A stretch of DNA of 64,000 bases from a virus: IMG/VR virus record IMGVR_UViG_3300033075_001734, positions 51,692 through 115,691 of that record. One strand, given 5' to 3'. Below are positions 21,443-39,561 of this stretch, piece after piece. The notes under the pieces were generated by a model. That model ran no database searches, was not told where the DNA came from, and saw only the letters and a list, made by a program, of their open reading frames with translations. A program made the position numbers and the translations under genes. Positions within the stretch are counted from its first letter, which is position 1; each line of letters opens with the position of its first letter.

Positions 21443-22153
21443 ATGTCTACACAGAAAAACTCATTTATTGCTGGCGTTGATATTGCATCAATCGTAAAGA
21501 AAAGTATACGTGAAAATGATACTGGGAAATTACTAGATGAATCATATGTTGCAGAACCAAAATCATATAAACAAGTAAGTGAACTTGTTTCGCAGAAAAC
21601 AAAAACTGCGCACACTGCGCTATACAAGTCTTATATTGAATCGCTTAATGATGTGTCAAATATGATTGACACAGCAGATCGTTCAAAAGCTGATTCAAAA
21701 CATTCAAGTTACAGATCACTTAAACTTGATGAGATTTACAATTTGAATGCAGTTTGGTTGCATGAATTGTATTTCGCAAATTGTTTTGATCCACATTCTG
21801 AAATAACAATGAACACGAAGTCTTATATGAGACTTGAGCGTGATTTTGGTACGTTCGACGATTGGCAGAAAGACTTTATTGCTTGTGCGCTTTCAGCTGG
21901 GAACGGTTGGGCAGTATGCGGCTATAACATTTACTTAAGACGTTTTGTAAATACACTAGTGTCAAATCACAGTCAAGATGTGATGTTGGGCCTCTACCCA
22001 GTAATTGTTGTTGACATGCATGAACACTCATATTCACGTGATTATTCAACAGATAAAAAATCGTATTTGATTGCACAAATGCGCGAATTTCATTGGGACG
22101 TAATAGAAGAGAGATTTGTAAGGGCGGAATCACTTAATGAGGTGTTAAAATGA
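21443..22153 (+). CDS. Fe/Mn superoxide dismutase family protein
   Basis: LERDFGTFDDW...GNGWAV resembles ERDFGS...GSGWAWL, and GLYPVIVVDMHEHSY resembles GLDVWEHAYY. Candidate ligands H(TAHTALY), H(LHELY), D and H are retained. Confidence 0.7.
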   Translation: MSTQKNSFIAGVDIASIVKKSIRENDTGKLLDESYVAEPKSYKQVSELVSQKTKTAHTALYKSYIESLNDVSNMIDTADRSKADSKHSSYRSLKLDEIYNLNAVWLHELYFANCFDPHSEITMNTKSYMRLERDFGTFDDWQKDFIACALSAGNGWAVCGYNIYLRRFVNTLVSNHSQDVMLGLYPVIVVDMHEHSYSRDYSTDKKSYLIAQMREFHWDVIEERFVRAESLNEVLK

Positions 22154-23142
22154 AAATACGTTTAGGTGATTTAAAGAAAATTATTGAAAATGCCTCATTA
22201 AACGAGGTTTCTTATAAGGTTTCTTATACTGAAAAAAATGGAAAACAAGGTTCATCAATTTTTCCAAGTGAAAAATTGGCGCAAATGTATGCAAAAACAG
22301 TAAAAAATGGTCAAGTTGAATTAATTGATTTGAACGCAGGCGAAGATATCACAGTTAAACAAATGCCCCCAGCGAGTTTAGACGATTTGAAAAAAGCGTC
22401 AAAAACTTTTTATGATAATCATCAAAGTAAATACGTAAAACAAAAACCAGCGTCAGGAGACGATTCTGAAGAAGAGCGTTCATATGAACAAGAGCGTGAA
22501 TTATTTGGAGCGCACCGAGCCGCAGGAACTTCATTGGATGATTTTTACAGTGATTTAGATGACATGAAGTCAAATAGACGTAAATCAGAATCAATATATC
22601 GAAAATATGTGAATCGTCTTTTAGAAGAAAAAGACGATCAGGAAAAATTGAATCATGAAGAAAATGATTCCCTGGATACACAAGTTGATCGTTTCTTAGG
22701 TCAATATGAAAGTGAAGCGAAGTCTGTAAAAACAGAAGGTTTAAATTTTCGGTCAATGACACGCCGTTTTTTAAATGAAGCAGAGGATGAAGACAAGTCT
22801 GATGACAAAGAAGACGAAAAAGATGATTCTAAAAATGAAGAACCAGAAGAACCTGAGAAATTAACGTTGGAAGACATAGACATTGCTTCATTCGCAAATG
22901 ATGTTGCAAGATTGGTTGACAATTATGATTCTTTACTTGAAGTTCGTAATACGATTGTACGAAGAGCAAAGAATTTTCTGAATAAATCATATGATGTTGA
23001 TGTGTTAAGTTCGTTTGAAAATTCAATGCAAAATGATCATGATATATCAACAGAAAAATCAAAATATGATTTAGATGATGAACACGTGGCTCCCGATGCA
23101 GAACGTGCAGGTAATGGCGGCGGTGGTGGAGGAAGTGTATAA
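22150..23142 (+). CDS. acidic low-complexity protein with a capsid-targeting-like N-terminus
   Basis: N-terminus MKIRLGDLKKIIENASL, D/E/K-rich, poly-Gly C-terminus. Confidence 0.4.
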   Translation: MKIRLGDLKKIIENASLNEVSYKVSYTEKNGKQGSSIFPSEKLAQMYAKTVKNGQVELIDLNAGEDITVKQMPPASLDDLKKASKTFYDNHQSKYVKQKPASGDDSEEERSYEQERELFGAHRAAGTSLDDFYSDLDDMKSNRRKSESIYRKYVNRLLEEKDDQEKLNHEENDSLDTQVDRFLGQYESEAKSVKTEGLNFRSMTRRFLNEAEDEDKSDDKEDEKDDSKNEEPEEPEKLTLEDIDIASFANDVARLVDNYDSLLEVRNTIVRRAKNFLNKSYDVDVLSSFENSMQNDHDISTEKSKYDLDDEHVAPDAERAGNGGGGGGSV

Positions 23143-23759
23143 TGAAATTAACATTGGGTGAATTAAAGTGTTTAATCAACGAATCACTTAATGGTGGAAT
23201 TCATTTAGTTCGTGTTGGTGGGTTAAGTCCTGTTAAACAATCAAAAGAATCTGCGCCTGAACGATATGGTGTTTGGGCATTTGTTTATCCATATATTGAA
23301 CCTTATTTGTTAGGTGGCACAAACCCTGAAGGACTTTACAAAAAAGGTGATCATGAACGTGAAAATACACGCGCTCATCAAATGAAACGTGAAGGGTTTA
23401 AGCACTTTAATCATAAAGGTGTTTTATACACGCGTATTGCAATTCCTGGTGTTAAAGAAGTTGATGGATGGTTTAAAACAGATGGTATTACTCTGAATGA
23501 TTACATGGGAAAACATTATGCTCAAACGTGGGCAGCTTTACGTAAACCTAAAAGTTGGCAATTAGAAGATCCAAATTTTGTTCAAAAACCTAATCAAAAA
23601 CCCTCATATCCGTTTGGCGCAAATCCTTGGAAGATATATTCAAAAGATGAATTTGAAGTATTCGTTCCTAATCCAGATGAGACAAATCCAAATAAACAAC
23701 GCAGATTAAATGACAAAGGTCATAGAAATGATTTAGATTTTGATAATGACAGCTTTTAA
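23142..23759 (+). CDS. hypothetical protein with a capsid-targeting-like N-terminus
   Basis: N-terminus MKLTLGELKCLINESL. Confidence 0.4.
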   Translation: MKLTLGELKCLINESLNGGIHLVRVGGLSPVKQSKESAPERYGVWAFVYPYIEPYLLGGTNPEGLYKKGDHERENTRAHQMKREGFKHFNHKGVLYTRIAIPGVKEVDGWFKTDGITLNDYMGKHYAQTWAALRKPKSWQLEDPNFVQKPNQKPSYPFGANPWKIYSKDEFEVFVPNPDETNPNKQRRLNDKGHRNDLDFDNDSF

Positions 23760-24081
23760 AGCAAGAACAGATTTATTCCAAGACAGAAAAGGAATTCACG
23801 TAAAAATCAGCAAAACAATTCATGCTGAATTACGTGCTCGTTTGTTTCAACATAACATATCAATGCAAAATGTTTTTGATGAATTTGCCAGACTTATTAT
23901 TACAGATGATATTCGTGCAAATAAGATTATTGAACAACTTGTCATGAGAAAATTAAAAGAATCTTGTGAAGGCCCATCAAAGGCTAAAAAGAGAAAAAGT
24001 ATTCCAATAGATGATCTTGATCACGATGCATTGTATAATATGATTGAGAATGGAGTAGATGATAATGATGACAACTCTTGA
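23740..24081 (+). CDS. hypothetical protein
   Basis: ORF of 113 aa. Confidence 0.3.
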   Translation: MIMTAFKARTDLFQDRKGIHVKISKTIHAELRARLFQHNISMQNVFDEFARLIITDDIRANKIIEQLVMRKLKESCEGPSKAKKRKSIPIDDLDHDALYNMIENGVDDNDDNS

Positions 24082-24319
24082 AAAAATGTTTAAAAGTTTG
24101 ACAACTATTAAGGGACTTGAAAAAATTAAAAGTGACATTGAACATATTGCAACCGCCGTTGTTCATCTTTCATCAGCTATTCAGATGCAAGCTGAGGCAA
24201 TACGTGAATTGTACGCAATTACAGATGCAATCAAAAGACCCGCGCAGCCACAGACAACGTCTTCAGCGCTTGATCTTAAGTTAAACACAGATAAAAAGAA
24301 AAACGTTAAGCCAAATTAA
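24059..24319 (+). CDS. hypothetical protein
   Basis: ORF of 86 aa. Confidence 0.3.
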   Translation: MIMMTTLEKMFKSLTTIKGLEKIKSDIEHIATAVVHLSSAIQMQAEAIRELYAITDAIKRPAQPQTTSSALDLKLNTDKKKNVKPN

Positions 24320-24320
24320 T

Positions 24321-24707
24321 ATGATATTTTTACGAAAAATTTTGACGTTTGTAAAAACGTATTGGAAATACTTTCTTGTAGGGATGGGAGTATTAGTAGG
24401 GTTTGTTTTTTTAGGCAAAAAGAATTTTGATCCAAACGCGATTCAAAAAATTAATGATGCTCATGAAAATGAATTGAAAAAAATTAAAGAACTTCATGAA
24501 AAAGAACGTTTAGAAAATGCTGCAAATTTGAAAAAAATGCAGGATACACTTAACGAAGTTCAAAGACAATATGACATTGAGAATAAAAAACTCGATGATA
24601 AAAAGCGCAAAGAAATTGAAGTTTTAATAAAAGAGCACGGGAACGATCCTGATATGCTTGCAAAAAAACTATCAGAAGCAACTGGATTTGATATCTTTAA
24701 ATTATGA
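24321..24707 (+). CDS. membrane-anchored coiled-coil protein
   Basis: N-terminal TM segment (YFLVGMGVLVGFVFLG) followed by a charged coiled coil. Confidence 0.35.
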   Translation: MIFLRKILTFVKTYWKYFLVGMGVLVGFVFLGKKNFDPNAIQKINDAHENELKKIKELHEKERLENAANLKKMQDTLNEVQRQYDIENKKLDDKKRKEIEVLIKEHGNDPDMLAKKLSEATGFDIFKL

Positions 24708-25279: not shown

Positions 25280-25354
25280 CGCTTGATTAATTCATCATCA
25301 TCTTTTGGTAGATTTCCTGTAGTACGATTATAAATAGTCTAGAGGGTTATTACC

Positions 25355-25672: not shown

Positions 25673-25675
25673 ATC

Positions 25676-26524
25676 ATGAAACAAATTACGGTAAGTGAAA
25701 AAGCAATAAGAGATCTTGTACGTGAAGCTTTAGAAGGGGACGTTGTTATTGATGTCAATGATGTCATTGATCCATCTGCCGCACAAACAAATCCGATCAA
25801 CGCCGAATTTGTTCCTACAACTAGACCCGAACTTGACGTAGCTGTTAAACAGTTAACAAAAGATATCCCGGGTGATAGAATTTCGCCCGCGTATAAATCA
25901 ATTAAAGATGCTATTAAAGCTGACGAAGTTCAGCGTGAAAAGGATGACAAAATGAAAGCAGATGATAAAAAGAAAGCAGTTGAAGAAACTGTTCGCCGCG
26001 CCGTTAGAAAAACATTAAGTGAAATTAATCCTCGATTTGATACGTCATATTCAGGCATGGATTACAGTTCTGGTGATGATGATGATGATGAAGATGATCT
26101 TGATTCTGATAAACCGAAACGAACGTATAAAGCGACAGCCTTAGGAAATATGGCAGACGTTGATGGTGCCTCATTTGAAGAGATTGCAACAGAATTAGGG
26201 TTCTCAGTTGCAGGGGCGAAACAGGCTGTAGATAAGGCGCTAGAAAAAGCCCAATTCATTGCAGCAACTGACTCAGATGAAATGGAAATTATTGTTCTTA
26301 CTACAATGTCAGATTATATCAAAATGCTTGCAAAGACAGGCGAATTGTCATCTGCTGATGTGACACTTTTGAAAGATCACCCAGCGATTGTTCGTGAACT
26401 TGACGGATTCCGTGATTATCTTCATAATTCAATTCGCAGAGCACGAAAAGCAACTGCGGTTGTTAATCCTTTGGGAGAAGCGAAAATGCCTCGCCGAAGT
26501 GGTAAACAGTTACCACGTTCATGA
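25676..26524 (+). CDS. acidic protein with a capsid-targeting-like N-terminus
   Basis: N-terminus MKQITVSEKAIRDLVREALEG and a DDDDDEDDLDSD stretch. Confidence 0.4.
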   Translation: MKQITVSEKAIRDLVREALEGDVVIDVNDVIDPSAAQTNPINAEFVPTTRPELDVAVKQLTKDIPGDRISPAYKSIKDAIKADEVQREKDDKMKADDKKKAVEETVRRAVRKTLSEINPRFDTSYSGMDYSSGDDDDDEDDLDSDKPKRTYKATALGNMADVDGASFEEIATELGFSVAGAKQAVDKALEKAQFIAATDSDEMEIIVLTTMSDYIKMLAKTGELSSADVTLLKDHPAIVRELDGFRDYLHNSIRRARKATAVVNPLGEAKMPRRSGKQLPRS

Positions 26525-26530
26525 TAATTT

Positions 26531-27256
26531 ATGCACGTCGTTTATTGTCACACCAACCTGATTAACGGGAAGTGTTATGTTGGTGTGACACCTATGACTG
26601 CAAAAATTGTTCCTGAAAATGTAAGTGAACAAGAGTTTGCAATTGATTTGATGAACAAACGTTTTGCTCGTCATGTTTATGATGCAACGTCCAGAAATCT
26701 TCCTTATGCTTTTCATTCAGCGATAAGACTTCACGGGAAAGATAGTTTTACGCATAAAATTTTAGAAATTTGTGATTCTCTTGAAGATGCATTCAAAAAA
26801 GAAATTCAGTTTATCATTGATCTAAAGTCACGAACAACAGAAAATGGTTATAACATAAAACCCGGCGGTGAAGGTTGTGCTCCGAGTGTAAGTGCAAATA
26901 AGCGAAAAAGTGAAGGTTTGAAAAAGCGTTGGGCAGTTTTAGGTGCAAAAGAAAAACATAGTCAAGTTATGAAATCAGTTGCAAAAAGATTAGGCTCAAA
27001 AGAAAAGCTCTCAGATATCATGAAAGTCGTTTCTAATCGACCTGAAGAAAAGGCTCGAAGATCTGTAATCGCCAGGACAAAATTTTCGAAATCTGTAATT
27101 CAAATTTGTGCAAAAACAAATCAAGAAATCAAAAAGTTTTCTTCATTAAAAGAAGCAAGTGAACATACGTCAATACGTTCTGTTTATATATCAAGGTGTG
27201 CTCGTGAAATAATTCATGAAATTAATGGATTTAAGTGGAAGTTTGTGAATAATTAA
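26531..27256 (+). CDS. GIY-YIG homing endonuclease (Seg/I-TevI-like)
   Basis: VVYCHTNLINGKCYVGVT (GIY...YIG), NUMOD-like K/R repeats, and a C-terminal GFKWKFVNN resembling the I-TevI DNA-binding tail. Confidence 0.8.
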   Translation: MHVVYCHTNLINGKCYVGVTPMTAKIVPENVSEQEFAIDLMNKRFARHVYDATSRNLPYAFHSAIRLHGKDSFTHKILEICDSLEDAFKKEIQFIIDLKSRTTENGYNIKPGGEGCAPSVSANKRKSEGLKKRWAVLGAKEKHSQVMKSVAKRLGSKEKLSDIMKVVSNRPEEKARRSVIARTKFSKSVIQICAKTNQEIKKFSSLKEASEHTSIRSVYISRCAREIIHEINGFKWKFVNN

Positions 27257-27282
27257 AATTACGAAAGAATCAGAATCAGAAT

Positions 27283-27720
27283 ATGAAATTAACATTGTCT
27301 CAATTAAGAAAATTAATTAACGAAGCTGTTCGTGTTGCACGTGTCGTTGTTGAAATTTCCACCGGACCTAACGGTCTTCCGACGATTACAAAAGAAGCAC
27401 TAGGGAAAATTGCGCCAGAAGCTCTGACTGCTCCAATGAACTCGGGAGAAAATCAAGAAGAACTTGATAAGAATCTCGAGATGATCTGGTTAATTACTAG
27501 CAGGCCAAAGAAGGTTCGCGATCCCGATGCCGACCCCGACGATGACGATGACGATGAGGTAACCTACACGGGTACAAATGAACCTGAATTAGGGGAATGG
27601 ATTGCCGATGCGTGGAAAGATTACGCCGTTACAATTAATGGTAAAAAATGGTTGTCCTATGTGGGTCGTGGGATGATGAATATGGATACATTTGGGACAA
27701 TACAAAAAAACAATGGATAA
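27283..27720 (+). CDS. hypothetical protein with a capsid-targeting-like N-terminus
   Basis: N-terminus MKLTLSQLRKLINEAV and an acidic PDADPDDDDDDE stretch. Confidence 0.4.
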   Translation: MKLTLSQLRKLINEAVRVARVVVEISTGPNGLPTITKEALGKIAPEALTAPMNSGENQEELDKNLEMIWLITSRPKKVRDPDADPDDDDDDEVTYTGTNEPELGEWIADAWKDYAVTINGKKWLSYVGRGMMNMDTFGTIQKNNG

Positions 27721-27755
27721 ATTATGCTTTTTAACAATTACGAAAGAATCAGAAT

Positions 27756-28127
27756 ATGAAATTAACATTACCTCAATTAAGAAAACTTGTCGAATCAACA
27801 GTAAAAGATGTCATGAAATCAAAGAGATCTTTGAGAGAAACTTTCGGCGATGAAACCGATGATCCAAATCATCCAATGCATGATTACGAATCAAACCTAG
27901 AAGGACAAGAATGTCCTGATTGTGGTGGAACAAATACTGTTTCGAATGAAAGCGTTCCATCGATGATGGGTTATGGAACTGATGATTCGTCTCATTGTAA
28001 TGATTGTGATTCTGATTTTTCATTTGATCCATTTTCAGGTCGTCCAAATTCTTCAAAAACAGGCGGTATGAAAGCATCTCTTGATCGTCACGTTAAAGAA
28101 TCAAGAATGAGAACACGTAGACGCTAA
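27756..28127 (+). CDS. zinc-ribbon protein with conserved N- and C-terminal cassettes
   Basis: MKLTLPQLRKLVESTVKDVMKSK...CPDCGG...CNDCDS...TGGMKASLDRHVKESRMRTRRR. Confidence 0.45.
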   Translation: MKLTLPQLRKLVESTVKDVMKSKRSLRETFGDETDDPNHPMHDYESNLEGQECPDCGGTNTVSNESVPSMMGYGTDDSSHCNDCDSDFSFDPFSGRPNSSKTGGMKASLDRHVKESRMRTRRR

Positions 28128-28283
28128 ATGTTTTATCAATCAGCACCCATTGAATGGGTGCTGAATGGAAAAAATAGTTATTATGTGTGGTTCATATGAC
28201 GATGAATATGGTATTATATTGGGATAATACTGAAAAACAATGGATAAATTATACTTTTTAACAATTACGAAAGAATCAAGAAT

Positions 28284-28586
28284 ATGAAATTAACATTACC
28301 TCAATTAAGAAAACTTGTCGAATCAACAGTAAAAGATGTCATGAAATCAAAGAAGAAATCTTTGAGAGAGGATTTTAGTTTAGTAGATGTAACTTGTCCT
28401 GAATGCGATAGTTACAACGTTGGTTATTCTAACCAACCTGGCGTTTGTGAATGTGAAGATTGTGGTGCTGAGTTTGATTATGAAAATGAAGAATATGAAA
28501 ACGAAACTCATTCTGAAACAGGCGGTATGAAAGCATCTCTTGATCGTCACGTTAAAGAATCAAGAATGAGAACACGTAGACGCTAA
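28284..28586 (+). CDS. zinc-ribbon protein paralog (identical N- and C-terminal 22 aa, different core)
   Basis: Same termini as 27756-28127. Core CPECDS...CECEDCG. Confidence 0.45.
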   Translation: MKLTLPQLRKLVESTVKDVMKSKKKSLREDFSLVDVTCPECDSYNVGYSNQPGVCECEDCGAEFDYENEEYENETHSETGGMKASLDRHVKESRMRTRRR

Positions 28587-29378
28587 ATGTTTTATCAGTC
28601 GGCACCCGTTGTTGCTTCTGTTCAATTTGCACCTGAATTATTAAACGTGCAAAAGAATATGACTGTTGCGCTTCAAATGTGTTTTGAGGCTGCAGCAAAG
28701 GGTGCTCGTGTGATTGTTCTTCCTGAACTTTGTTTAAGTGGTTATGTTCTAAGAACACCTCGAGAAGCATTAGAGTGTGCTCAAGAAAAAGACGGGTATC
28801 AATCTGAGGCATTTATTCCGATTGCAAGACGATTTAATTGCCATATTGTTTTTGGGTATGTTGAACTTTGTGAAGGGAAACTTTATAACTCTGCTGTCGT
28901 CATTGGACCTAACGGTGTTGTCGGGAACTTCCAAAAACACAATGGATATGGCAGTGACTTTTTGTGGTTCACTGCATCTGAACAATATCCAGCACGAGTC
29001 GTAACTGACGTTGGTAGGTTAGGTGTTCTTATTTGTCGTGATGCAATGAATGAATATCGTCAAAGTTATAAGTTTAACCATGATGAAAAGTTTTATCGTA
29101 AAGGTGATATTGATGTTCTTGCTCTGCTAACAAATTGGGGGAATTCATATGGATTCCCAGATGCAACATGGGTTGAACTCGCAGAAGAACTTGATACAAA
29201 TGTCATTGTGTCAAATCGAATTGGAAAAGAACGTGATATGAAATGGAAAGGTGGATCTTGTATAATCACAAGAGATCTTAAAGTTCAGTCATATGGAAGT
29301 TCATTTACAGAACCCACTGTTGTGGGAGGAATAATTCATGAAATTAATGGATTTAAGTGGAAGTTTGTGAATAATTAA
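28587..29378 (+). CDS. carbon-nitrogen hydrolase (nitrilase superfamily)
   Basis: RVIVLPELCLSGY (catalytic Glu) and GVLICRDAMNE (catalytic Cys). Confidence 0.75.
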   Translation: MFYQSAPVVASVQFAPELLNVQKNMTVALQMCFEAAAKGARVIVLPELCLSGYVLRTPREALECAQEKDGYQSEAFIPIARRFNCHIVFGYVELCEGKLYNSAVVIGPNGVVGNFQKHNGYGSDFLWFTASEQYPARVVTDVGRLGVLICRDAMNEYRQSYKFNHDEKFYRKGDIDVLALLTNWGNSYGFPDATWVELAEELDTNVIVSNRIGKERDMKWKGGSCIITRDLKVQSYGSSFTEPTVVGGIIHEINGFKWKFVNN

Positions 29379-29399
29379 AATTACGAAAGAATCAAGAAT

Positions 29400-29755
29400 A
29401 TGAAATTAACGTTGCCTTAATTAAGAAAACTTGTCGAATCAACAGTAAAAGACGTCATGAAATCAAAGAAGAAATCTTTGAGAAAATCAAAGAAAGTTGT
29501 ATGTCCTGAATGTGGAAGTGATGAAATTGAATTTGACTTAATAGATGTGAAAAATAAACGTGAATTTAATGAATGTCAAGATTGTGGAACTGAATTTGTT
29601 GATAGTAAAGATGATGGATCTGTTTACACGTGAATGATGACTACCTGAACGATGATCTCTCTGCATGTCCTGAATGTGGAAGTGAAGATGTAGATTTAGA
29701 TGCTACACAACATTCAAAATTTATCGTTTGTAATGATTGTGGAAATGAATATTAA
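29400..29755 (+). pseudogene. degenerate third copy of the MKLTLPQLRKLVESTVKDVMKSK zinc-ribbon gene
   Basis: Same 5' cassette, but codon 7 is TAA (CAA>TAA). Two zinc-ribbon modules follow, separated by TGA and a frame change (29631-29633). Confidence 0.45.
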
Positions 29756-30592
29756 ATGAACTTTGCATTACTTAAAAAATACATTCAGTTTGTTGTTAAT
29801 GAATCTTTGTTCAGAAAAACTTTTACAAAGATAACGCCCGAAGATCAAAGATCACCTGATGATATCAAACGAAATGCAAAACCCAATACGTGGCGTGATA
29901 ATCGTGAAGATGCATTTGATGATAATATTGATGAAATGATTAAACAACCTGAATTCAAAGACGTTGATTCATTTGTCAATTATAAACTTGATAATGAAGA
30001 ATTTGAATTTTCAACGCAAGAGCTTCAGGCACTTGTACATAACACAGAAAAAAAACGTTTAGGATATAATGTAAGTTCAGTATCTTCAGGCGCAACATCA
30101 AATTTAAGATCAATTCTTGTTAATGACTATGGATTTAAGTTTGTTCCAAGAGCGCCTGTAAAATTTTCTCGAGGTGGAATGGCTTCTTCACATGGTACTA
30201 ATCCTTATGCAGGTATGGGCGGCGGTGGTTCAGGTGCAGGAAGTGAAATGTCAAAACATGTCGGCGGGTTTCATGGAATGGGCGGCGGACCAGGTGCTAT
30301 GGGTGGGGGTTATAACTGGGACAAAGATGATAAACGAAATTTGCCCATGGGCGCAGCAAAGAAAAAATTAAAAGAATCATATCAATTTAAGAATGCAGAT
30401 GAATTAATTGACAACGTACTAAAACATTGGAAACAGATTTCCAATACACCTAAAAGTAGAATTTTTAATGATTCAGGATGGCCAGAAATTGTAGGAAAGT
30501 ATTTACAAGAATGTGGAATCAATGAAGATGATTTTTTTTCTGCCTGGGAAAAAAGATTTGGCACACATCCAGGATTTATTTCTGATGAATAA
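29756..30592 (+). CDS. Gly-rich protein with a capsid-targeting-like N-terminus
   Basis: N-terminus MNFALLKKYIQFVVNESL and a GMGGGGSGAG...GMGGGPGAMGGG stretch. Confidence 0.4.
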   Translation: MNFALLKKYIQFVVNESLFRKTFTKITPEDQRSPDDIKRNAKPNTWRDNREDAFDDNIDEMIKQPEFKDVDSFVNYKLDNEEFEFSTQELQALVHNTEKKRLGYNVSSVSSGATSNLRSILVNDYGFKFVPRAPVKFSRGGMASSHGTNPYAGMGGGGSGAGSEMSKHVGGFHGMGGGPGAMGGGYNWDKDDKRNLPMGAAKKKLKESYQFKNADELIDNVLKHWKQISNTPKSRIFNDSGWPEIVGKYLQECGINEDDFFSAWEKRFGTHPGFISDE

Positions 30593-31668: not shown

Positions 31669-32277
31669 ATGACAAAAATTAAAACAGGATCAGGTCTTGC
31701 GTCATATCTTGACAGTGTTATTCAAGAAACAGTGAAATCATCATTGCAACAACGCGCTCTTAAGGAAAGAGAGAAACAAGATTCAACACAGGGTTCAAAA
31801 AAATCAAACAACTCTTCAGGCAATAACCAATCAAAAGTAGATGAAGATAATTCTGGGGACACTGTCGCGTCCAAGACAATGGACGATGAAACAGACAAAC
31901 TGAAAACCGGTGAATCAATTAAAGCTGATGATATTGTTTCTCGTTTAAATACAATTCGAGGCGGCCATTCATTTAAAGATGAGCATGTTGCAGCTGCAAT
32001 GGAAGAATACGTGGAAAGTTTGACAAACGCTGAAAAAACAGCGTTGTTAGCCTTTCTTAAGGGAATTTCACAGATTGTAACTGGCGAAATTTCGGGTGAT
32101 GATGCGACTGATCCCAAAACACATCCTGCAGATGTTAAAATGAAAAAAGACAATGAAATTTATCAGCAGAAAAAACACATCGATCCAAACGTTATTAAAA
32201 CCGCTCAGGATAAGAAACCTAAAAAAGATGGAAAAGAAGATACATCTGGTCCTGTTCCAATAACTCCAAAGAAATGA
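31669..32277 (+). CDS. hypothetical K/E-rich protein
   Basis: The internal Met MTKIKTG avoids overlap with the upstream ORF. Confidence 0.35.
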   Translation: MTKIKTGSGLASYLDSVIQETVKSSLQQRALKEREKQDSTQGSKKSNNSSGNNQSKVDEDNSGDTVASKTMDDETDKLKTGESIKADDIVSRLNTIRGGHSFKDEHVAAAMEEYVESLTNAEKTALLAFLKGISQIVTGEISGDDATDPKTHPADVKMKKDNEIYQQKKHIDPNVIKTAQDKKPKKDGKEDTSGPVPITPKK

Positions 32278-32280
32278 ATT

Positions 32281-32469: not shown

Positions 32470-32470
32470 A

Positions 32471-32734
32471 ATGAATAAAGATATATTGGCACAATACATT
32501 AAACTTGTCGTTGAACAGCGTATACGTGAAGCCGATATATCTGATGGTACAAAAGTTGAACATGGTTCTGATAAACACATATCAGATCTTAAAATTCGAA
32601 TTGAAGATTTAATAAAATGGCGTGATAAACAACGTAAAGGTTCAGAAGCACGTGCAAATTACGCTCGATTAATAAATTCACTTAAAGCGCAATTGGCAAG
32701 TGCTCTTCGCGCCGCGGCAAAAAAGAAAAAATGA
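32471..32734 (+). CDS. small basic protein with a capsid-targeting-like N-terminus
   Basis: N-terminus MNKDILAQYIKLVVEQRIREA. Confidence 0.35.
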   Translation: MNKDILAQYIKLVVEQRIREADISDGTKVEHGSDKHISDLKIRIEDLIKWRDKQRKGSEARANYARLINSLKAQLASALRAAAKKKK

Positions 32735-34857
32735 ATAAACTTCACGAGGGAGGTGCTGCAGGTCATCTTCGTTATATTTCTGATAATCTTGCCCTCACCT
32801 TTGGTGAGATAAAAGAAGTAATTCAAAATTCGTGCGAAGGAAAACTTGAACGTGTCTCTGAAAAACTTGACGGAATTAATAACTGCTTTACATACGATAT
32901 TTCAACAAAACAGATAAAAGTTGCACGTACAGGCAATGACATTAAGAATGGTGGAATGGATGCTAAAGCGCTTGCAAAGAAATTTTTTGGTCGTGGCAAC
33001 GTAGAAGAAGCATTTAACAAATCATTTAAAGTTCTTGAAGATTCAATGAATGGACTTACGCTTGCCCAACAGAGAAAAATCTTTGGTCCTCGTGCAAATA
33101 AATGGTATTCAATGGAAATCATATATGCTGCGTCTCCAAATACCGTGAGTTACGATAGTAATAATATTGTGTTTCACGGGTGGCCGATATTTGAAATTAA
33201 GTCTAACGGATCTGTTGAACAAATAGACGACGATTCTGGCGTGGGGATTTTATCAAAAAATATAAATCAGATGCAAAAAGCAGTGAGCATGAAAGATTGG
33301 CAAGTTCGCGGTCCGTCTTTGCTTTCACTTAAGAAAATATCTGATGGTTCGTTGGTGTCATCATTGTTATCTGATCTTGATCAGATCATGCAAGAAGGTA
33401 ACGTTACCGAAAATGATTCAATGTATGAATATCTTCGCAACATGTTGAGTGAAAGCGTCGCCAATTTAGGATTACCAAGAAAAATTTCAAACCTCGTTAT
33501 TTCTCGTGCAATTGAAGAACCAGGTTCACCGGGACTCCCTGAGATTAAAAAAATAGCACCTAAAGAATATCATTCAACGATATCACAATTCATTAAAGAT
33601 TCAGAAGCGTTGAAAAAACAATTCATGATTCCAATTGAGAAACTTTTAAATCAATTGGCTCTTGAAGTTTTAAGAGGTTTACATTCAACACTAATAGATG
33701 ATTCAGATGCTGAAGTTCGAAGAATTAAATCACAATTAACTAAAGCAATAAGCGCAATAAATTCAAGTGGTAATGATGTTGCTATGAACATATTACAAAC
33801 TGAATTACAACGACTAGGAAATATTGAAAATGTTGTTGCTGCAATGGAAGGCATTGTGTTTTTCTTTAAAGGGCAAGCGTATAAATTTACGGGAAATTTT
33901 GCTCCCGCACATCAAATTTTGAGTTTGTTCAAATATGGACGAAAAGGAGTTCCACCAATGAGTATGGGTGAAGCCCTATTGTCACGTTCAATTGAACAAT
34001 TATTGAATGAAGGTGGGCATGCTTTTTCTAATGTTTTACCCATTTCACTCGAAGACTTTAGAGTAACGTGGCCTCATATTTTAGATGACTTAAGAACATT
34101 AGGTTGCACAAAAATTGAACCCATAGGAAGTACTGGCAAAAAACAAATAATGGGTGACATTGACATTGCAGCTGAATTTCCCGGAACAACATCTGAATTA
34201 TTTGAATTGGCGTCTGACATGTTTGGAATCAATTCTGTGCGTAAAGTAGGCGGAAACACCGTAACGATAAGTTATCCAGTTTATGTTGCAAAAGGTGGAC
34301 AAACAGGTAATCACGTTCAAGTCGATGTAATGTTAGGAAAAGTAAGTTATTTATCTTGGTCACGTTTTGGTACATCTCCTCATGAAGAGCATATTGATTA
34401 TTCTCCGTTGAAGGGTGTGGCACGAAATATACTTTTAGGCGTCGTTAGTCGATATTTATCAAAACAACAATTTGATACAAACGATTTAGACAGAACGCGA
34501 TACAATATTGATTTTGACAACGGATTGTATAAAGTTGTTCAAACTCGTCGTAATAAAACGTCAACAAAACCACCGACAAAAAATTGGCGAATTTTATCAA
34601 GAGAATTGTTATCTGATGACCCTGATTTGATATCACAAGCCATATTCGGTCAAAATTTTAAAGCAAATGATTTAAGAAAATTTGAAGATGTTGTCAGGGT
34701 GATTAAAACATCTCCAAAAACAAAAACGTTGGCGACTGAAATTTTGAATTCATTTAATGACGAAATTAAAGATATTGTACTTAAAATGCCACACGTACTA
34801 GGCGATAACCTTGAACGCTCTTTATCATACATAGAAACTGTAATCAATAATAATTAA
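32731..34857 (+). CDS. large protein with nucleotidyltransferase-like motifs
   Basis: Contains EKLDGIN (KxDG-like) and IGSTGKKQIMGDIDIA, a Pol-beta-superfamily GS-x9-DxD motif. Confidence 0.4.
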   Translation: MNKLHEGGAAGHLRYISDNLALTFGEIKEVIQNSCEGKLERVSEKLDGINNCFTYDISTKQIKVARTGNDIKNGGMDAKALAKKFFGRGNVEEAFNKSFKVLEDSMNGLTLAQQRKIFGPRANKWYSMEIIYAASPNTVSYDSNNIVFHGWPIFEIKSNGSVEQIDDDSGVGILSKNINQMQKAVSMKDWQVRGPSLLSLKKISDGSLVSSLLSDLDQIMQEGNVTENDSMYEYLRNMLSESVANLGLPRKISNLVISRAIEEPGSPGLPEIKKIAPKEYHSTISQFIKDSEALKKQFMIPIEKLLNQLALEVLRGLHSTLIDDSDAEVRRIKSQLTKAISAINSSGNDVAMNILQTELQRLGNIENVVAAMEGIVFFFKGQAYKFTGNFAPAHQILSLFKYGRKGVPPMSMGEALLSRSIEQLLNEGGHAFSNVLPISLEDFRVTWPHILDDLRTLGCTKIEPIGSTGKKQIMGDIDIAAEFPGTTSELFELASDMFGINSVRKVGGNTVTISYPVYVAKGGQTGNHVQVDVMLGKVSYLSWSRFGTSPHEEHIDYSPLKGVARNILLGVVSRYLSKQQFDTNDLDRTRYNIDFDNGLYKVVQTRRNKTSTKPPTKNWRILSRELLSDDPDLISQAIFGQNFKANDLRKFEDVVRVIKTSPKTKTLATEILNSFNDEIKDIVLKMPHVLGDNLERSLSYIETVINNN

Positions 34858-34861
34858 AATC

Positions 34862-35782
34862 ATGTCAAATAATCTTAAAATACTTCTATCTGAATTTGTT
34901 AAACATGTTATTGCTGAAGGAAAAGGTCTTGATATGTCAGGGAATTGGGTTTCTTGGCCCCCTGCGTCAAAACGTATTAGTTATCAACCTACAATAAAAG
35001 GTGTTGGTCCCGGTGAAGAACGTTTGGCAAAAATGATGAATGGACAAGTTATGGGAGGCGGCGTATCACATGATATCGAAGGTCCAGATGGTTCATCTTG
35101 GGAAGTTAAAGAACCTGTCGGCGGAAAAATTCGTGCTGGTATTGAAGGAACTACAGCTTCGATAAAAATGAGAACTGAAATTGACAATGTGGTCAACATA
35201 ATTGTGAATGCATATTCTGGATCTAGAACAAAACAAGGATTTAAGTCGTTGTTTCGTAAACAACAACTTGATTTAATCAGACACTTCATTGTCAATGAAG
35301 TTCCGATGATCAGAAAAGCAGAAATTTCTGGTGGACGAATGATGTTAATGTTGGACGTTCTTAATCTAATTAATCAAGCAATATACGGCAATAACGCTCT
35401 AGATTCTACGGAAAATTCGATTGAAAATGATGAACAAAAGTTCGTTGAACTTGGTGATGAAAAGAAAACCGTAAAAAAAGATATTGATACAGCAACATTT
35501 GTTAAAATTGGTCAGGAGCTTGGATTACCAAATGAAGAATTGAATATCACAGAAAAAGATATTTTTAAATCAATATTTTCAAATATGGCGTTTACTGACC
35601 CAGACAAATGGTTTAAAATGTATTGGACAAAAGGTGCTTCTGCGTCAGATGTTTTTGGTCATTGTACAGGTGTTATATTGGTTTCAGAAGATGGATACAA
35701 AGTTGTTAATCACAATCGATTAAATCGTGAAATTGTCTTTTTCTCTATAAGTCAATCAAGAACACAGTTCAAAGTTTCTTAA
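34862..35782 (+). CDS. hypothetical protein with a capsid-targeting-like N-terminus
   Basis: N-terminus MSNNLKILLSEFVKHVIAEG. Confidence 0.4.
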   Translation: MSNNLKILLSEFVKHVIAEGKGLDMSGNWVSWPPASKRISYQPTIKGVGPGEERLAKMMNGQVMGGGVSHDIEGPDGSSWEVKEPVGGKIRAGIEGTTASIKMRTEIDNVVNIIVNAYSGSRTKQGFKSLFRKQQLDLIRHFIVNEVPMIRKAEISGGRMMLMLDVLNLINQAIYGNNALDSTENSIENDEQKFVELGDEKKTVKKDIDTATFVKIGQELGLPNEELNITEKDIFKSIFSNMAFTDPDKWFKMYWTKGASASDVFGHCTGVILVSEDGYKVVNHNRLNREIVFFSISQSRTQFKVS

Positions 35783-36395
35783 TTGTTAAAAGAACATATT
35801 CTCTTATTAATGATTCTAATTTTGGTTTCGCCCATTTAGGAGTTTTGATTTTTATTTCCTTTTCAACGGGTTTAGTTGATGTCAGAGTGTTCCAATATTT
35901 GTTTCCGTCAATGTTTTTAGGCAAGAATTTTTTAAATGATTCTTTATCGTTATTCAATAGAAATTGACGCATTTTTGTTCCACTGACGTTAACCGTTGAT
36001 GTTCGTTCAACACCACGTGTTATAACTTTTCCATTATCATATAAGTTTTTTGCATATTTCTGTAATGATTTGTCTGAAAAATTTTCTGCTGCGTCAACTG
36101 GATCAGAATATATTGTGAAATTGTCTTGTGAATTTGATTCACTTGCTGTGCCAATTTCTAAGTAAACATTTCGTACAGGTGATCCACCGTATATTATTTT
36201 TACGTTCGAAGGTAGAATGTCTTCAATTTGATCTTTCCAAATTGTTTGCATTGCTTTTCCACTTATAATATCTCTGTCACTTAATGACACAAATAATTTC
36301 ACAATATCATTTTCTTTTGCAGCGATCTGTATTAGTCCAAAGTGTCCTGCATGAAATGGCTTCGCAGCCATTGGAATTAATCCTATTGTTGTCAT
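35769..36395 (-). CDS. HxGH-motif nucleotidyltransferase (cytidylyl-/adenylyltransferase-like)
   Basis: N-terminal PMAAKPFHAGHFGLI is the (T/H)xGH motif of Rossmann-like nucleotidylyltransferases. Confidence 0.5.
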   Translation of the reverse strand: MTTIGLIPMAAKPFHAGHFGLIQIAAKENDIVKLFVSLSDRDIISGKAMQTIWKDQIEDILPSNVKIIYGGSPVRNVYLEIGTASESNSQDNFTIYSDPVDAAENFSDKSLQKYAKNLYDNGKVITRGVERTSTVNVSGTKMRQFLLNNDKESFKKFLPKNIDGNKYWNTLTSTKPVEKEIKIKTPKWAKPKLESLIREYVLLTIKKL

Positions 36396-36399
36396 ATTC

Positions 36400-36906
36400 G
36401 TGTCAATCCTAACATTGTCGTGGTATAATAATTACAATATGATGGGTAAAAAATATTCAAATGAAGAGATTATTTCTTGTGGTGCAATAACTTGGCGTTT
36501 AAAACAAGGATTGATTGAAATTCTTCTTATAAAACAATTTCATGATAAGGAACTTTGGGGAATTCCTAAGGGACATATCAACAAGGAAGAATCAATTGAT
36601 ACATGTGCTATACGAGAAGTATTTGAAGAAACTGGTGTGTTAGTTGAATTAGGAGTGAGATTAAGTGATTGTTTAATACGACAAAAAGTTAAGCAGAAAA
36701 AAGTTATATCATTTTTAGCTATACCGTTAAGTCATGATGAACCAAATCACAATGGTTATGATAGTGAAGTTGCTGATGCAAAGTGGTTCAATATTAAAAA
36801 TTTGCCAAATTTAGTTTCATATCAGCAAGTTTTAATTAAAGAAGCTTGCGATTTAATTGCAATTCATGTTATGAAATTATCAGATCACATAAAATTAATG
36901 AAATGA
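36400..36906 (+). CDS. Nudix hydrolase
   Basis: Nudix box GIPKGHINKEESIDTCAIREVFEETGV. Confidence 0.7.
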   Translation: MSILTLSWYNNYNMMGKKYSNEEIISCGAITWRLKQGLIEILLIKQFHDKELWGIPKGHINKEESIDTCAIREVFEETGVLVELGVRLSDCLIRQKVKQKKVISFLAIPLSHDEPNHNGYDSEVADAKWFNIKNLPNLVSYQQVLIKEACDLIAIHVMKLSDHIKLMK

Positions 36907-37172
36907 GTATTGAACAAGACACAGCGACACGTATTCTTGATGCACTGAATTATGTATATTCGTATGCTGACGGTGTTGATGATTGGATTACAATAAAAAA
37001 GGAACTTTTAAAAATCTTGACTGCAAAAGATAGAACGTTATTTTCTACTAGACACCCCATAACAAAAAAACAACAAACAAATGACTTTGAAAGATCTGTT
37101 GCTAAACGATGGTCAATATTAACTGGTCGTTCTGTTATATTTAGTACAAATGAACAACAAGAAATTGAATGA
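36903..37172 (+). CDS. hypothetical protein
   Basis: Internal start MSIEQD within track ORF 36846-37172. Confidence 0.3.
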   Translation: MSIEQDTATRILDALNYVYSYADGVDDWITIKKELLKILTAKDRTLFSTRHPITKKQQTNDFERSVAKRWSILTGRSVIFSTNEQQEIE

Positions 37173-38163
37173 ACAGCTGATTAGAAGACACGTGCGCAAA
37201 ATCATTCTTGAAGACGATGGTGGTGCGTATGGAGGTTGGGGCGACGCGGGCGCCGGGGGTGCATATGGAATGCATTATGCTAGTAAAGATCAACTTTATA
37301 ACATTTTCATAAAACCATTTGTTGACGTAGTACAAGTTGGCGCGGGAAAAGCAAAAGAACTTTCTATAAAGACACAAACTCTTGTTAAAACAGTGTTTGA
37401 TGTCGCCGCAACTACAATCTTGCCCGGTCTGTCACAAAATTATTCTGAAATTTATGAAAAAGAAAAAAACGCGCTTGATAAAATACGCTCGCAATATTCA
37501 AGTGTATATGGTGCAACATGGGATGCATTTAAAGAAGCCGATGTAATGATTGCAGCATTCATGTTTCGCCCAGATTTAATCTTGACAACGCAATTTGTAA
37601 GAAAAACTCCTAAAGTTGCAGCTAAATTATTAAGCGTGTTGTCAGGTGGCAAATTAGATGACGTGCTTGGAAAACTATTACATAGTGAAAAAAGTAAATC
37701 AACTTTTGAATCTGTATTACACGAAAAAGATGACAAAAAGAATAAAAATAATGATGACGCTGAAAAATTAATTGCCCTTGTTAAAAACGACAAAGTTAAA
37801 AAACTACTTGCAAATAGTGATGAAGTTCAAAAATTATCAAGGATTGGGAAAGAAATAGTTTTAGGCACGTTAAAAGATGTTATTAAAAGCGCAAATTTAG
37901 TTTTAAGTGCAACGAATGTTAAACAACTTGAAAAACCTTTGGGCAAAAAAATTCCTGAACTTAATCAATTGTCTAAAGTTCCTGATAGTGAAAAACAGGC
38001 AGCTGAGAAACAATTGTTAAAAACAATTAAACTATCAATGAAAGAGTTTTACATTAAACAATTAGAGGCACAGATTAAAAGCGTAGTGTCTGCGGGATTG
38101 TCGCAAGATCATCCATACGTAAAAAGTTATTTAATTGCAATCTCAAAAATTAAGTCTTTTTAA
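37150..38163 (+). CDS. Gly-rich protein with a capsid-targeting-like N-terminus
   Basis: N-terminus LNEQLIRRHVRKIILEDDGG, then GAYGGWGDAGAGGAYG. Confidence 0.4.
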   Translation: MNNKKLNEQLIRRHVRKIILEDDGGAYGGWGDAGAGGAYGMHYASKDQLYNIFIKPFVDVVQVGAGKAKELSIKTQTLVKTVFDVAATTILPGLSQNYSEIYEKEKNALDKIRSQYSSVYGATWDAFKEADVMIAAFMFRPDLILTTQFVRKTPKVAAKLLSVLSGGKLDDVLGKLLHSEKSKSTFESVLHEKDDKKNKNNDDAEKLIALVKNDKVKKLLANSDEVQKLSRIGKEIVLGTLKDVIKSANLVLSATNVKQLEKPLGKKIPELNQLSKVPDSEKQAAEKQLLKTIKLSMKEFYIKQLEAQIKSVVSAGLSQDHPYVKSYLIAISKIKSF

Positions 38164-38200
38164 GACAAAACATTCTTGCATAAGTTGTTATAATAAATTT

Positions 38201-38482
38201 ATGAAGAATTCACAGAAACAATATAACGTAGCTGATATGCAACCTGATGAGATTAATGCTTTGCGTTCTTTAGTTAAAGAATTTATGACGAAAGTTTCAA
38301 GTATTGATAACGAAGTTGAACTTCTTAAAACAGACCGCAAAGAACTTATTGAAGAATATTCATCAAAACTTGATATGAAAACATTAACTGCCGCATTACG
38401 TGTGTTAAAAATTCAGCAAGGCGTTCAACATAAAGATACGTATGATCTTTTTCTTACTGCCTTGGAAGGTGAAAATCTATGA
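38201..38482 (+). CDS. hypothetical protein
   Basis: Internal start MKNSQKQ within track ORF 38135-38482. Confidence 0.3.
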   Translation: MKNSQKQYNVADMQPDEINALRSLVKEFMTKVSSIDNEVELLKTDRKELIEEYSSKLDMKTLTAALRVLKIQQGVQHKDTYDLFLTALEGENL

Positions 38483-38868
38483 GTGTTGTTGTTTTGAAAA
38501 AAACAAAACTTACGCATGTGAAACTTTCAAAATTTGAACTTATTCATTTACGTGATTTATTTTCACTCCTTACGCCTCCCGAGATGAAAGAAACGATAAG
38601 TCAAAAATTAGCATTGTTACAAAACAGGCCATTAATTGAAGCAAAATTATGGCAAAAGATCGTTAGAGCATGTGAAGAATGTGAAATACCTCTTGGTGAT
38701 GAAGCACCTGACTTTGTTGTATCATTAGCATCAACACCCAGTATTGGCGTTTATGAATTATCCCATGATGAAAATCAAGAACAAAGTGAGACATCTATTT
38801 TTGACTCAGACGAATCATCAGATGAAGATGATGACAATGACGAAGATGAAGATGAAGAGGATGAATGA
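38479..38868 (+). CDS. hypothetical protein with an acidic tail
   Basis: C-terminus SDESSDEDDDNDEDEDEEDE. A GGTGA Shine-Dalgarno lies upstream. Confidence 0.35.
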   Translation: MSVVVLKKTKLTHVKLSKFELIHLRDLFSLLTPPEMKETISQKLALLQNRPLIEAKLWQKIVRACEECEIPLGDEAPDFVVSLASTPSIGVYELSHDENQEQSETSIFDSDESSDEDDDNDEDEDEEDE

Positions 38869-39287
38869 GCACATATAATATTGGACAAGTTGTATATGGC
38901 ATTTTTAAGAAAAATATGTCAGTTCAACCATTTCAAGTAGTTGAAGTAATCACTAAAAAAAACCTTCAAGGTGAATCAACGTCATATGTTCTTCGAACGT
39001 TTTATAATGACAAAGAATATACTGAAATTGATTCAAAAATAGATGCTGAATTTTTTGCATCTGCTGAGGTAGCACGAACAACATTAGTTTTACGAGCTGA
39101 AGCGTCTATTAAAAAAATAGTTGATTTAGCAACAGAAAATGCGGAAAAGTTCTTTCAACTAGAAGAACACCTGACAAAAGAATCAATTGAACATGTCATA
39201 GACAATCAACTAGAAGCAGATTCGTCAACTGTTGAAACAATAATTGAAGGAAAACGCGTTAAAGTTCGTCTTCCAAAGACTCAATAG
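38865..39287 (+). CDS. hypothetical protein
   Basis: ORF of 140 aa with an ATGA overlap. Confidence 0.35.
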   Translation: MSTYNIGQVVYGIFKKNMSVQPFQVVEVITKKNLQGESTSYVLRTFYNDKEYTEIDSKIDAEFFASAEVARTTLVLRAEASIKKIVDLATENAEKFFQLEEHLTKESIEHVIDNQLEADSSTVETIIEGKRVKVRLPKTQ

Positions 39288-39300
39288 AATACGTATAGAT

Positions 39301-39561
39301 ATGTCGCTATTAACATTAGAATCATTACGTAAATTAATCATCAAAGTAATTAAAGAAGCAAAAATAAAAGCTTCTCCAGAGTATATGGCAAAGGAAGTTG
39401 TTAGAAATGAACTTCAACAATTAATTTTGAGTCATATAAATTCAGGTGATGTTACAGATGAAAAGCAATTAAAAATGCTACTTTCAAATATTGATTTATC
39501 TTTAATTGCACTTAAAATGATCCCATTTGATGTTTGGAAAAAACTAAAGACAACAAAGTGA
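39301..39561 (+). CDS. small protein with a capsid-targeting-like N-terminus
   Basis: N-terminus MSLLTLESLRKLIIKVIKEA. Confidence 0.35.
   Translation: MSLLTLESLRKLIIKVIKEAKIKASPEYMAKEVVRNELQQLILSHINSGDVTDEKQLKMLLSNIDLSLIALKMIPFDVWKKLKTTK

Follow-up and report, generated by a model that had tools for sequence, protein, structure and literature searches.

The capsid-targeting sequence (CTS) of phage T4 is a peptide of 10-19 residues that is able to package foreign proteins (PMC9026906, PMC9958956, PMC5694885). Its residues 4 and 7 serve targeting and residues 8 and 10 serve processing; the gp21 protease cleaves after L/I-x-E, and the change of Glu10 to Asp blocks processing while targeting is kept (PMC9026906). 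In the T-even phages, the internal-protein genes are variable and CTS-like leaders are found on diverse proteins (PMC9026906). In the giant phages phiKZ, 201phi2-1 and SPN3US, inner-body and ejection propeptides are cut after Glu by the gp175/gp245 proteases; propeptides of this type have been proposed as head-targeting, and paralogues may share identical N-termini (PMC5694885). Here, we analyse a stretch of 64,000 nucleotides (the window) from the virus record IMGVR_UViG_3300033075_001734, in which proteins with different bodies begin with a shared leader of the consensus MKLTLxQLRKLIxE. We find that this N-terminus is probably the counterpart, in the lineage of the window phage, of the T4 CTS, acting as a portable propeptide. 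The CTS principle is already known from T4; what is new is a distinct and longer consensus, the occurrence of such leaders in T4-type phages far from T4, huge phages among them, and the scale of the family. Our literature searches, which covered the motif strings, Mel-JY01 and the CTS of huge phages, found no earlier description of such leaders.

The mechanism that we consider likely, judging from sequence comparisons, is that the leader targets its cargo to the prohead core and is cleaved after ΦxE (Φ, a hydrophobic residue) by an S77 protease, thereby loading the cargo into the capsid. An amphipathic N-terminal helix of 12-21 residues would present positions 3, 5, 8, 11 and 12 of MKLTLxQLRKLIxE as its hydrophobic face. 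This helix would dock the cargo on the scaffolding core of a T4-type prohead as the gp23-type shell closes. A gp21-family (Peptidase_S77) prohead protease would then cut after the conserved Glu of Φ-Φ-x-E, ahead of A, S, G or N, and the mature cargo would stay inside the capsid and enter the next host with the DNA. The tag would be modular and attached to unrelated cargo, namely a Nudix hydrolase and zinc-ribbon, PD-(D/E)xK-like, ADP-ribosyltransferase-like, acidic or Gly-rich proteins.

The carriers in the window, together with one pseudo-leader, are as follows; a slash parts the leader from the residues after it, and the core cluster is the group of eight proteins described below.

13173-14201, minus strand: 342-aa carrier, leader MHISIKQLRNVINHMLNE/GG at nt 14148-14201; core cluster.
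22150-23142, plus strand: 330-aa acidic carrier with a Gly-rich C-terminus, leader MKIRLGDLKKIIE/NA; core cluster.
23142-23759, plus strand: 205-aa carrier, leader MKLTLGELKCLINE/SL; core cluster.
25676-26524, plus strand: 282-aa acidic carrier, leader MKQITVSEKAIRDLVRE/AL; the orthologue on contig L025 retains VTVSEQALRELVQEALDG.
27283-27720, plus strand: 145-aa acidic carrier, leader MKLTLSQLRKLINE/AV; core cluster.
27756-28127, plus strand: 123-aa zinc-ribbon carrier with weak zinc-ribbon Pfam matches, leader MKLTLPQLRKLVE/ST; core cluster.
28284-28586, plus strand: 100-aa zinc-ribbon carrier, leader identical to that of 27756; tandem duplication.
29400-29633, plus strand: pseudo-leader MKLTLP, in-frame TAA stop, then LRKLVESTVKDV; repeat family D2.
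29756-30592, plus strand: 278-aa Gly-rich carrier, leader MNFALLKKYIQFVVNE/SL; the L025 orthologue has MSVRLLREFISLIIEG.
31669-32277, plus strand: 202-aa candidate carrier, N-terminus MTKIKTGSGLASYLDSVIQE/TV; a degenerate motif match, weaker than the others.
32471-32734, plus strand: 87-aa basic carrier, leader MNKDILAQYIKLVVE/QRIRE/A; the L025 orthologue retains DVLFDYVKMIVETRVREAD.
34862-35782, plus strand: 306-aa carrier, leader MSNNLKILLSEFVKHVIAE/GK.
37150-38163, plus strand: 337-aa carrier, leader MNNKKLNEQLIRRHVRKIILE/DDGG and then a Gly-rich stretch; the L025 orthologue has LLRECIREVLREDYGG.
39301-39561, plus strand: 86-aa carrier, leader MSLLTLESLRKLIIKVIKE/AK; core cluster; the L025 orthologue has MVIRLNKLRKFIREAV.
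45165-45674, plus strand: 169-aa Nudix hydrolase (Pfam NUDIX 3.8e-18), leader MSLSLLREYILE/VLGG and a linker of ~45 residues.
51417-51638, plus strand: 74-aa carrier, leader MRITIRQLRKFIKE/QI; core cluster.

An earlier note on this DNA had quoted twelve of these N-termini, and all twelve are found in the sequence. Its minus-strand carrier, placed at 14207, is the ORF 13173-14201(-), which begins MHISIKQLRNVINHMLNEGG, and the range 22150-39561 that it gave for the family leaves out MRITIRQLRKFIKEQ, the 74-aa ORF 51417-51638. The carriers that it quoted stand, and the Nudix hydrolase at 45165-45674 (MSLSLLREYILEVLGG) had been overlooked; the weaker 31669 candidate is likewise absent from its list. 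The family extends beyond the window into the left flank of the same phage (L031), where leader-type N-termini occur at 954-2657 (MPNSLNFLREYLELIL, 567 aa), 8667-8849 (MKITIRRLREIVKNSL, 60 aa) and 8871-10004 (MSTLNVGKLQNIVQQVLIEE, 377 aa).

The motif exists and is confined to N-termini. The core pattern M(K/R/H)(L/I)x(L/I)xxL(R/K)xΦ(I/V), composed after the sequences had been inspected, finds 8 N-termini and not one internal site among 19,283 residues; when all six frames were scanned with it, only one pseudo-leader and one spurious match were added. Comparing N-termini by BLOSUM score, we obtained a tight cluster of 8 proteins (13173(-), 22150, 23142, 27283, 27756, 28284, 39301 and 51417), while the largest cluster among internal segments of the same proteins (n=200 controls) had a mean of 2.3 and a maximum of ≤7. 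With a leave-one-out position-specific scoring matrix (PSSM), seven of the eight core leaders were beaten by at most one of 15,679 internal positions and the 22150 leader by 22; the highest score, 30.5 bits, belonged to the 27283 leader. The looser pattern Φ..ΦΦ.E lies within the first 24 residues of 14 of the 101 window proteins vs 4.2 expected (p = 8.5e-5). In T4 this pattern gives ~6% false positives, and the looser members are thus not callable from the window alone; each needs outside support. These are the leaders of 25676, 29756, 32471, 34862, 37150 and 45165, with 31669 as a further candidate. The first PSSM failed to separate 34862, 25676 and 32471 from background, and the looser leaders are supported because they are conserved in orthologues.

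The leaders span residues 1-12 to 1-21, always at the extreme N-terminus, and end in Φ-Φ-x-E with A, S, G or N as the next residue. I/V/L-x-E is present in 23142, 25676, 27283, 29756, 34862, 37150, 45165 and 51417, and a variant Φ-Φ-E in 22150, 27756, 28284 and 32471. The leader is predicted to form an amphipathic helix: the AlphaFold models place it at residues 5-17 in the 23142 protein and 3-18 in the 34862 protein; in the latter model, confidence falls at the leader-body junction and is low for residues 15-20. A Sec or lipoprotein signal peptide was rejected, the leaders being charged and amphipathic with no hydrophobic core of 10-15 residues; true lipoprotein signals (e.g. MKKLILFTFIIFTLFSCG) form a separate N-terminal cluster in the huge phage LR756500.

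Behind the leaders, the bodies differ. When the first 24 residues were removed, BLASTP found 27756/28284 as the sole related pair, so that the description of the carriers as otherwise unrelated is right except for these two. Pfam and PHROG scans of ten carriers gave no family, and hence none common to them. The bodies had also been called acidic, Gly-rich or zinc-ribbon proteins; this suits a part of them (pI <5 in 8/16, Gly-rich stretches in three, zinc ribbons in two). The 13173 carrier has no Pfam family. In the 23142 body, R24, S59-T60 and E170-x-E172 are conserved, and in the 34862 body D71, E81 and K83 are invariant in a PD-(D/E)xK-like arrangement. The 25676 protein has a weak sigma-70 region 4-like stretch, its Pfam matches being sub-threshold, and one carrier has a weak ADP-ribosyltransferase-like fold (cf. 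T4 Alt). In the Nudix hydrolase, the tag has clearly been added to a known enzyme.

Comparison of orthologues shows that the leaders are conserved as protein sequence. Of 15 orthologues of the 23142 protein (41-75% identity), 14 keep M-x-(L/I)-T-(L/I)-x-x-L-R-x-L-I-x-E; linker insertions of up to ~17 residues follow, and then the conserved body GIxLxRVGGLSPVKQ. In the 34862 family, LLKEFIxQVLDE is present in 12/15 aligned sequences, with a linker of 0 to ~55 residues behind it; two of the remaining three are N-terminally truncated and one has a looser helix ending in Glu. The Glu is nearly invariant in both alignments. A close orthologue of the 22150 protein (in L009) retains MKIRLGDLKKIVERA. 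The syntenic contig L025, with 53% GC vs 34% in the window, has orthologues of 25676, 29756, 31669, 32471, 34862, 37150 and 39301, and the leader is retained in all seven; that of the 31669 orthologue reads VAQFIDGVISESIK. Between the window and L025 leaders, amino-acid identity is 48% and third-codon-position identity 35%, so that it is the peptide, rather than the RNA, that is under selection.

The leader is modular, with a linker of variable length. LLREYIxEVL lies near residue 5 in 62 of 104 Nudix homologues, with the Glu present in 61 of the 62 and a leader-to-core distance of 19-85 residues; more distant homologues of 120-150 aa are leaderless and have the Nudix fold from the start. The 708-aa protein at 32731 is leaderless in the window, and its orthologues in L025 (MKVELLRELIEK...) and LR756500 (MKFLKSYEEFLNE...) bear leaders. 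By these comparisons, the leader is a module that is gained or lost as a unit.

Database searches added less. No related locus of the 205-aa 23142 protein was found in IMG/VR, and a tblastn search of isolated phages with an orthologue gave no match. Searching 1.84 billion representative proteins with a nine-leader profile, we obtained 12 matches at E ≤ 0.001, namely the window protein, an orthologue already known, and proteins in which several stretches fit the leader profile; the motif is too short for such a search. The DNA pattern of the MKLTL leaders had one match in metagenome contigs, on a 4.5-kb contig, and an ORF scan of that contig found no MKLTL-type leader ORF; no further part of the phage genome was recovered in this way.

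The leaders co-occur with T4-type head genes, which are present in every relative that could be inspected. In L007, the 23142 orthologue directly follows a gp13-like neck gene and lies ~5 kb from a Gp23 capsid gene (Pfam 1e-75), and a 92-aa protein with the leader-like LTPKMLQRIISEEI is encoded upstream of the scaffold-like and capsid genes. L010 has gp13 and gp15, and five of its ~28 genes begin with the MKLT-type leaders MKLTVRQLKRLIRE, MKLTTRQLRKLITE, MKIRLTELRTIIRG, MKITIGRLKRVIKE or MLITLKQLRTLINE. Flavobacterium phage immuto, which is among the best matches in the phage collection to the window GroEL (43% identity) and to the L007 capsid protein, has the T4 gene order of portal, small proteins, Peptidase_S77 protease (gp21 family, 9e-35), scaffold-like protein and Gp23. 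Its leaders include MKKSQLRQIIKEAL and MKKSELVKLIKEEL, and a third, MKKSQIVKAVQEVLEE, heads a 73-aa protein whose gene lies between those of the portal and the protease, at about the place of T4 genes 67/68. The full genome of LR756500 encodes Portal_T4 (2e-70), a Peptidase_S77 domain (6e-11) and Gp23 (8e-34), and in its 140,296 residues MK[YF][ILV]xx[YF]xx[FY][ILV]x[ED] occurs at 23 N-termini (e.g. MKYIKEYEEFILEA) and 2 internal sites. The leader has lineage-specific variants: MKTYQEFIAE, MKYIKEYEEFILE, MKLTLxQLRKLIxE, MKKSQLRQIIKE and LLREYIxEVL. No head, scaffold or protease gene was found in the window or in the ~10 kb on either side by which the flanks were extended from both ends, and the protease of the window phage is for this reason inferred from its relatives; core docking, cleavage, packaging and ejection are inferred too.

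As a separate observation, another N-terminus, ME(N)xFDLKKFLVENKLT, recurs in immuto (L011 = NC_055915 100001-150000) on four otherwise different proteins (3806, 17631, 18632 and 25241); it is not of the MKKSQLRQIIKE type.

In T4 itself, the CTS is borne by IPI, IPII and IPIII, and gp21 also takes short N-terminal propeptides off Alt, gp24 and gp22. Read from the T4 genome (NC_000866), the N-termini of IPII and IPIII (MKTYQEFIAE/A), gp24 (MAKINELLRE/S), Alt (MELITELFDE/D) and gp22 (MLKEQLIAE/A) show the same Φ..ΦΦxE pattern with a small residue after it as the window leaders do. Both are N-terminal peptides of 10-20 residues borne by unrelated proteins, and the window leaders fit the gp21 L/I-x-E rule. 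Aligned on the Glu, L8, L11, I12 and E14 of the window consensus fall on Y4, F7, I8 and E10 of the T4 CTS. The resemblance to the T4 CTS proposed in the earlier note thus holds in every feature that can be tested in sequence (position, helix, L/I-x-E and key residues), but does not extend to detectable homology. The carriers of the window are scattered among tk, denV and nudix-type genes, as are T4 ipII and ipIII, and relatives of the window phage that bear leaders encode a gp21-family protease. The LR756500 leaders (MKYIKEYEEFILEA) are visibly closer to T4 MKTYQEFIAEA than those of the window. The numbers differ, with at least 12 carriers in the 64 kb of the window vs ~5 in the whole of T4, and many window carriers are acidic, in contrast to the basic character ascribed to the T4 internal proteins (PMC9026906). 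Like the T-even internal proteins, the window carriers combine a conserved leader with fast-changing cargo, which has been read as an arms race with host defences; unlike the close T4 relatives that infect enterobacteria, the window belongs to a huge phage with a DnaE-type polymerase and a much expanded leader family.

Two other systems are less close. The phiKZ-type phages are likewise giant phages that package many proteins and have a protease cutting after Glu, but their motif is S/A/G-x-E, their propeptides are mostly >100 residues, and their protease is of another branch, while the relatives here carry Peptidase_S77. An inner-body propeptide of the phiKZ type was rejected, as the leaders have 12-21 residues and a hydrophobic residue two before the Glu. 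The cargo-loading peptides of encapsulins are usually C-terminal and uncleaved, with another motif and a non-viral shell. They resemble the leaders as short portable peptides that take unrelated cargo into an HK97-fold shell; no encapsulin gene turned up here.

Several points weigh against a CTS-like propeptide. The window leaders are 2-11 residues longer than the 10-residue T4 CTS and differ in consensus (MKLTLxQLRKLIxE vs MKTYQEFIAE). The match is one of pattern, with no statistically detectable homology to the T4 CTS, and no significant alignment is possible because the sequences are so short. The 13173 and 39301 leaders have H or K at the position of the Glu, the next Glu being 4-5 residues on; in 13173 the residue is His and the next Glu is residue 18. 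The link to an S77 protease comes from relatives at 25-50% protein identity. The place of the 23142 family beside the neck genes of L007 means that it is possibly a structural, non-ejected protein. The database proteins P0033, P0034 and P0041 have a second, internal copy of the motif (e.g. MKLTESQLRKTIKES ... MKLTESKLRKIIKES); they could be fused ORFs or polyproteins. Carriers also sit among nucleotide-metabolism and repair genes, outside any head module, which is a weak objection because T4 ipII and ipIII also adjoin denV, nudE and tk.

Moreover, five of the strongest members arose by local duplication. The leaders of 23142, 27283, 27756 and 28284 and the 29400 pseudo-leader have 60-73% DNA identity and are thus not independent; 27283, 27756, 28284 and 29400 lie within a duplicated tract adjoining a GIY-YIG homing endonuclease gene, and 27756/28284 are paralogues from a tandem duplication (repeat families D1, D2, D3 and D9). 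The leaders of 13173(-), 22150, 39301 and 51417 have no DNA repeat in common with the others. Recent local duplication therefore brings the independent instances below 14; the figure of at least 14 carriers was inflated by it, though the shared N-terminus is real. A 58-aa zinc-ribbon ORF (29457-29633) begins directly after the 29400 pseudo-leader, whose stop codon is also present in contigs from two other samples (L001 and L004).

The tract is bordered by an exact 65-nt repeat (27208-27272 = 29330-29394). This is the 3′ end of the homing endonuclease gene (26531-27256), copied to the end of a nitrilase gene (28587-29378), and the two proteins both terminate in IHEINGFKWKFVNN.

The duplications raise the question of whether the leaders share any function at all, or merely reflect recent copying of an exon-like N-terminal segment together with chance amphipathic helices. 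The 60-73% DNA identity of the five MKLTL leaders in the tract by the homing endonuclease, the ~6% of false positives that the degenerate pattern gives in T4 and the failure of the first PSSM on 34862, 25676 and 32471 are what this reading would predict. It leaves unexplained the four leaders without a common DNA repeat, the seven leaders, looser ones included, that are kept in L025 despite near-saturated synonymous sites, and the similar leaders that unrelated proteins bear in L010, in immuto and in the left flank L031. The orthologue comparisons largely refute it, and we consider it quite improbable; it appears to account for a part of the count only. An RNA-level element is least credible, and very improbable: an A/T-rich 5′ coding sequence might help to start translation where the host makes no use of Shine-Dalgarno sites, which suits the lack of upstream Shine-Dalgarno motifs and the start of the MKLTL leaders with ATGAAATTAAC, but the peptide pattern is kept with other codons in L025 (53% GC), L007 and L024 (61% GC). 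It was rejected on the third-position identity of 35% vs 48% for amino acids.

A functional tag could also serve another purpose. The leader may dock its cargo to the scaffold or inner shell and stay uncleaved, like scaffold-binding or cargo-loading peptides. N-terminal restriction, modularity and co-occurrence with T4-type head genes fit this equally well, two leaders have no Glu at the canonical site, and in T4 the Glu10 to Asp change stops processing, not targeting (PMC9026906). Still, the Glu, needless for targeting alone, is the most conserved residue of the leader (61/62 in the Nudix family), and small residues and a variable linker come after it, as they would after a protease site; we regard uncleaved targeting as unlikely. 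We give a similarly low rating, as a rather doubtful alternative, to an address or interaction tag for another machine, such as the vault homologue, the GroEL chaperonin, a proteasome-like pair, the membrane or a transcription/replication complex. The window does encode a vault homologue, GroEL and two Ntn/proteasome-like ORFs, the carriers lie amid non-structural genes, and several resemble enzymes or DNA-binding proteins that could act in the infected cell. However, neither the vault, nor GroEL, nor the proteasome goes together with the leader in its distribution, which makes a tag for any of them unlikely: the vault homologue is in 3 phage records only and not in the leader-bearing immuto, and LR756500 has at least 23 leaders and no homologue of the window GroEL or proteasome-like proteins. 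For the membrane, the leader is charged and amphipathic, and lipoprotein signals cluster apart in LR756500.

Should the propeptide behave like its T4 counterpart, sequence alone would be enough to list which proteins of uncultivated huge phages are packaged and injected. There would be at least 12 such proteins in the window and at least 23 in LR756500, and candidate early effectors and anti-defence proteins would be singled out among thousands of unannotated ORFs. This would partly explain how huge phages use their extra capsid volume and coding capacity, and would give phage engineering, in Bacteroidota and other hosts, a new set of short packaging tags. The leader variants offer a test case for the co-evolution of a targeting peptide with scaffold and protease. 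A broader and more tentative proposal, which we hold to be possible rather than probable, is that huge phages with T4-type heads turned the CTS into a general loader, in which a tag of 12-20 residues sends 5-15% of the proteome for co-injection. Its cargo would comprise Nudix hydrolase, nuclease-like, ADP-ribosyltransferase-like, zinc-ribbon and sigma-like proteins, a pre-made takeover and anti-defence kit far larger than that of any studied phage. The kit would be readable from genomes via the tag, which would have diverged in step with the head machinery of each lineage.

The window has 34% GC, and its genes are tightly packed, mostly on the plus strand, with no Shine-Dalgarno motifs found upstream of them. 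Judged by its genes, the window comes from a very large phage, whose host is probably of Bacteroidota type. Megablast of 18 kb of the window against phage genomes gave no DNA-level match to isolated phages. The metabolism and repair genes include thymidine kinase, dCMP deaminase, superoxide dismutase, denV, RNA ligase and 5′-3′ exonuclease; GroEL, the GIY-YIG homing endonuclease and a major vault protein homologue are also encoded. The DnaE-type polymerase is split by a Hint domain and inserted genes. Its pieces lie on the plus strand at 4332-6410 (with a Hint/intein-like end), 8519-9256 and 10225-11745, and other genes, including a Vsr-like endonuclease at 9228-10247, lie between or overlap them (4332-11745).

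The homologue of the eukaryotic major vault protein (54861-57500, minus strand, 879 aa) matches Pfam MVP_shoulder (5e-31), Vault_3 and Vault. Genes with 41-42% identity to it occur in three published huge phages, LR756500, LR756501 and LR756503, and the phage collection holds no record with it beyond these 3. Two adjacent paralogous ORFs at 18863-19423 and 19423-19974 (plus strand) start MTCI(L/V)G...GGDSAG and are conserved in L009; in sequence both resemble an Ntn-hydrolase or a beta-type proteasome subunit, N-terminal Thr included, and neither has a Pfam match. The 708-aa protein at 32731-34857 (plus strand) has homologues in LR756500, LR756508 and Microcystis phage Mel-JY01, and its first ~400 residues match the Mel-JY01 gene annotated 'cytidylyltransferase like protein'. 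A 208-aa cytidylyltransferase-like ORF (35769-36395, minus strand; weak Pfam Citrate_ly_lig) has the leader-like KLESLIREYVLLTIKKL as its C-terminus. An IF-1-like ORF, judged by sequence alone with no search made, occupies 51583-51855 and overlaps the end of the called 51417 carrier.

Small proteins of ~75-100 aa with an N-terminal (I)YPGDLC-like motif form a large family at 14912-15699 (plus strand) and 58005-61789 (minus strand) of the window; the variants are MIYPGSLC, MIYPGDLC, MKIYPGMLC and ...PGDL..., with further copies in the flanks L028, L029 and L031. At 63365-63756 (minus strand) there are tandem duplicate 65-aa ORFs rich in Ser/Gly/Arg repeats, with variants in L027. The phage also encodes an ADP-ribosylglycohydrolase (47369-48292) and a papain-like peptidase C1 (44075-44830).

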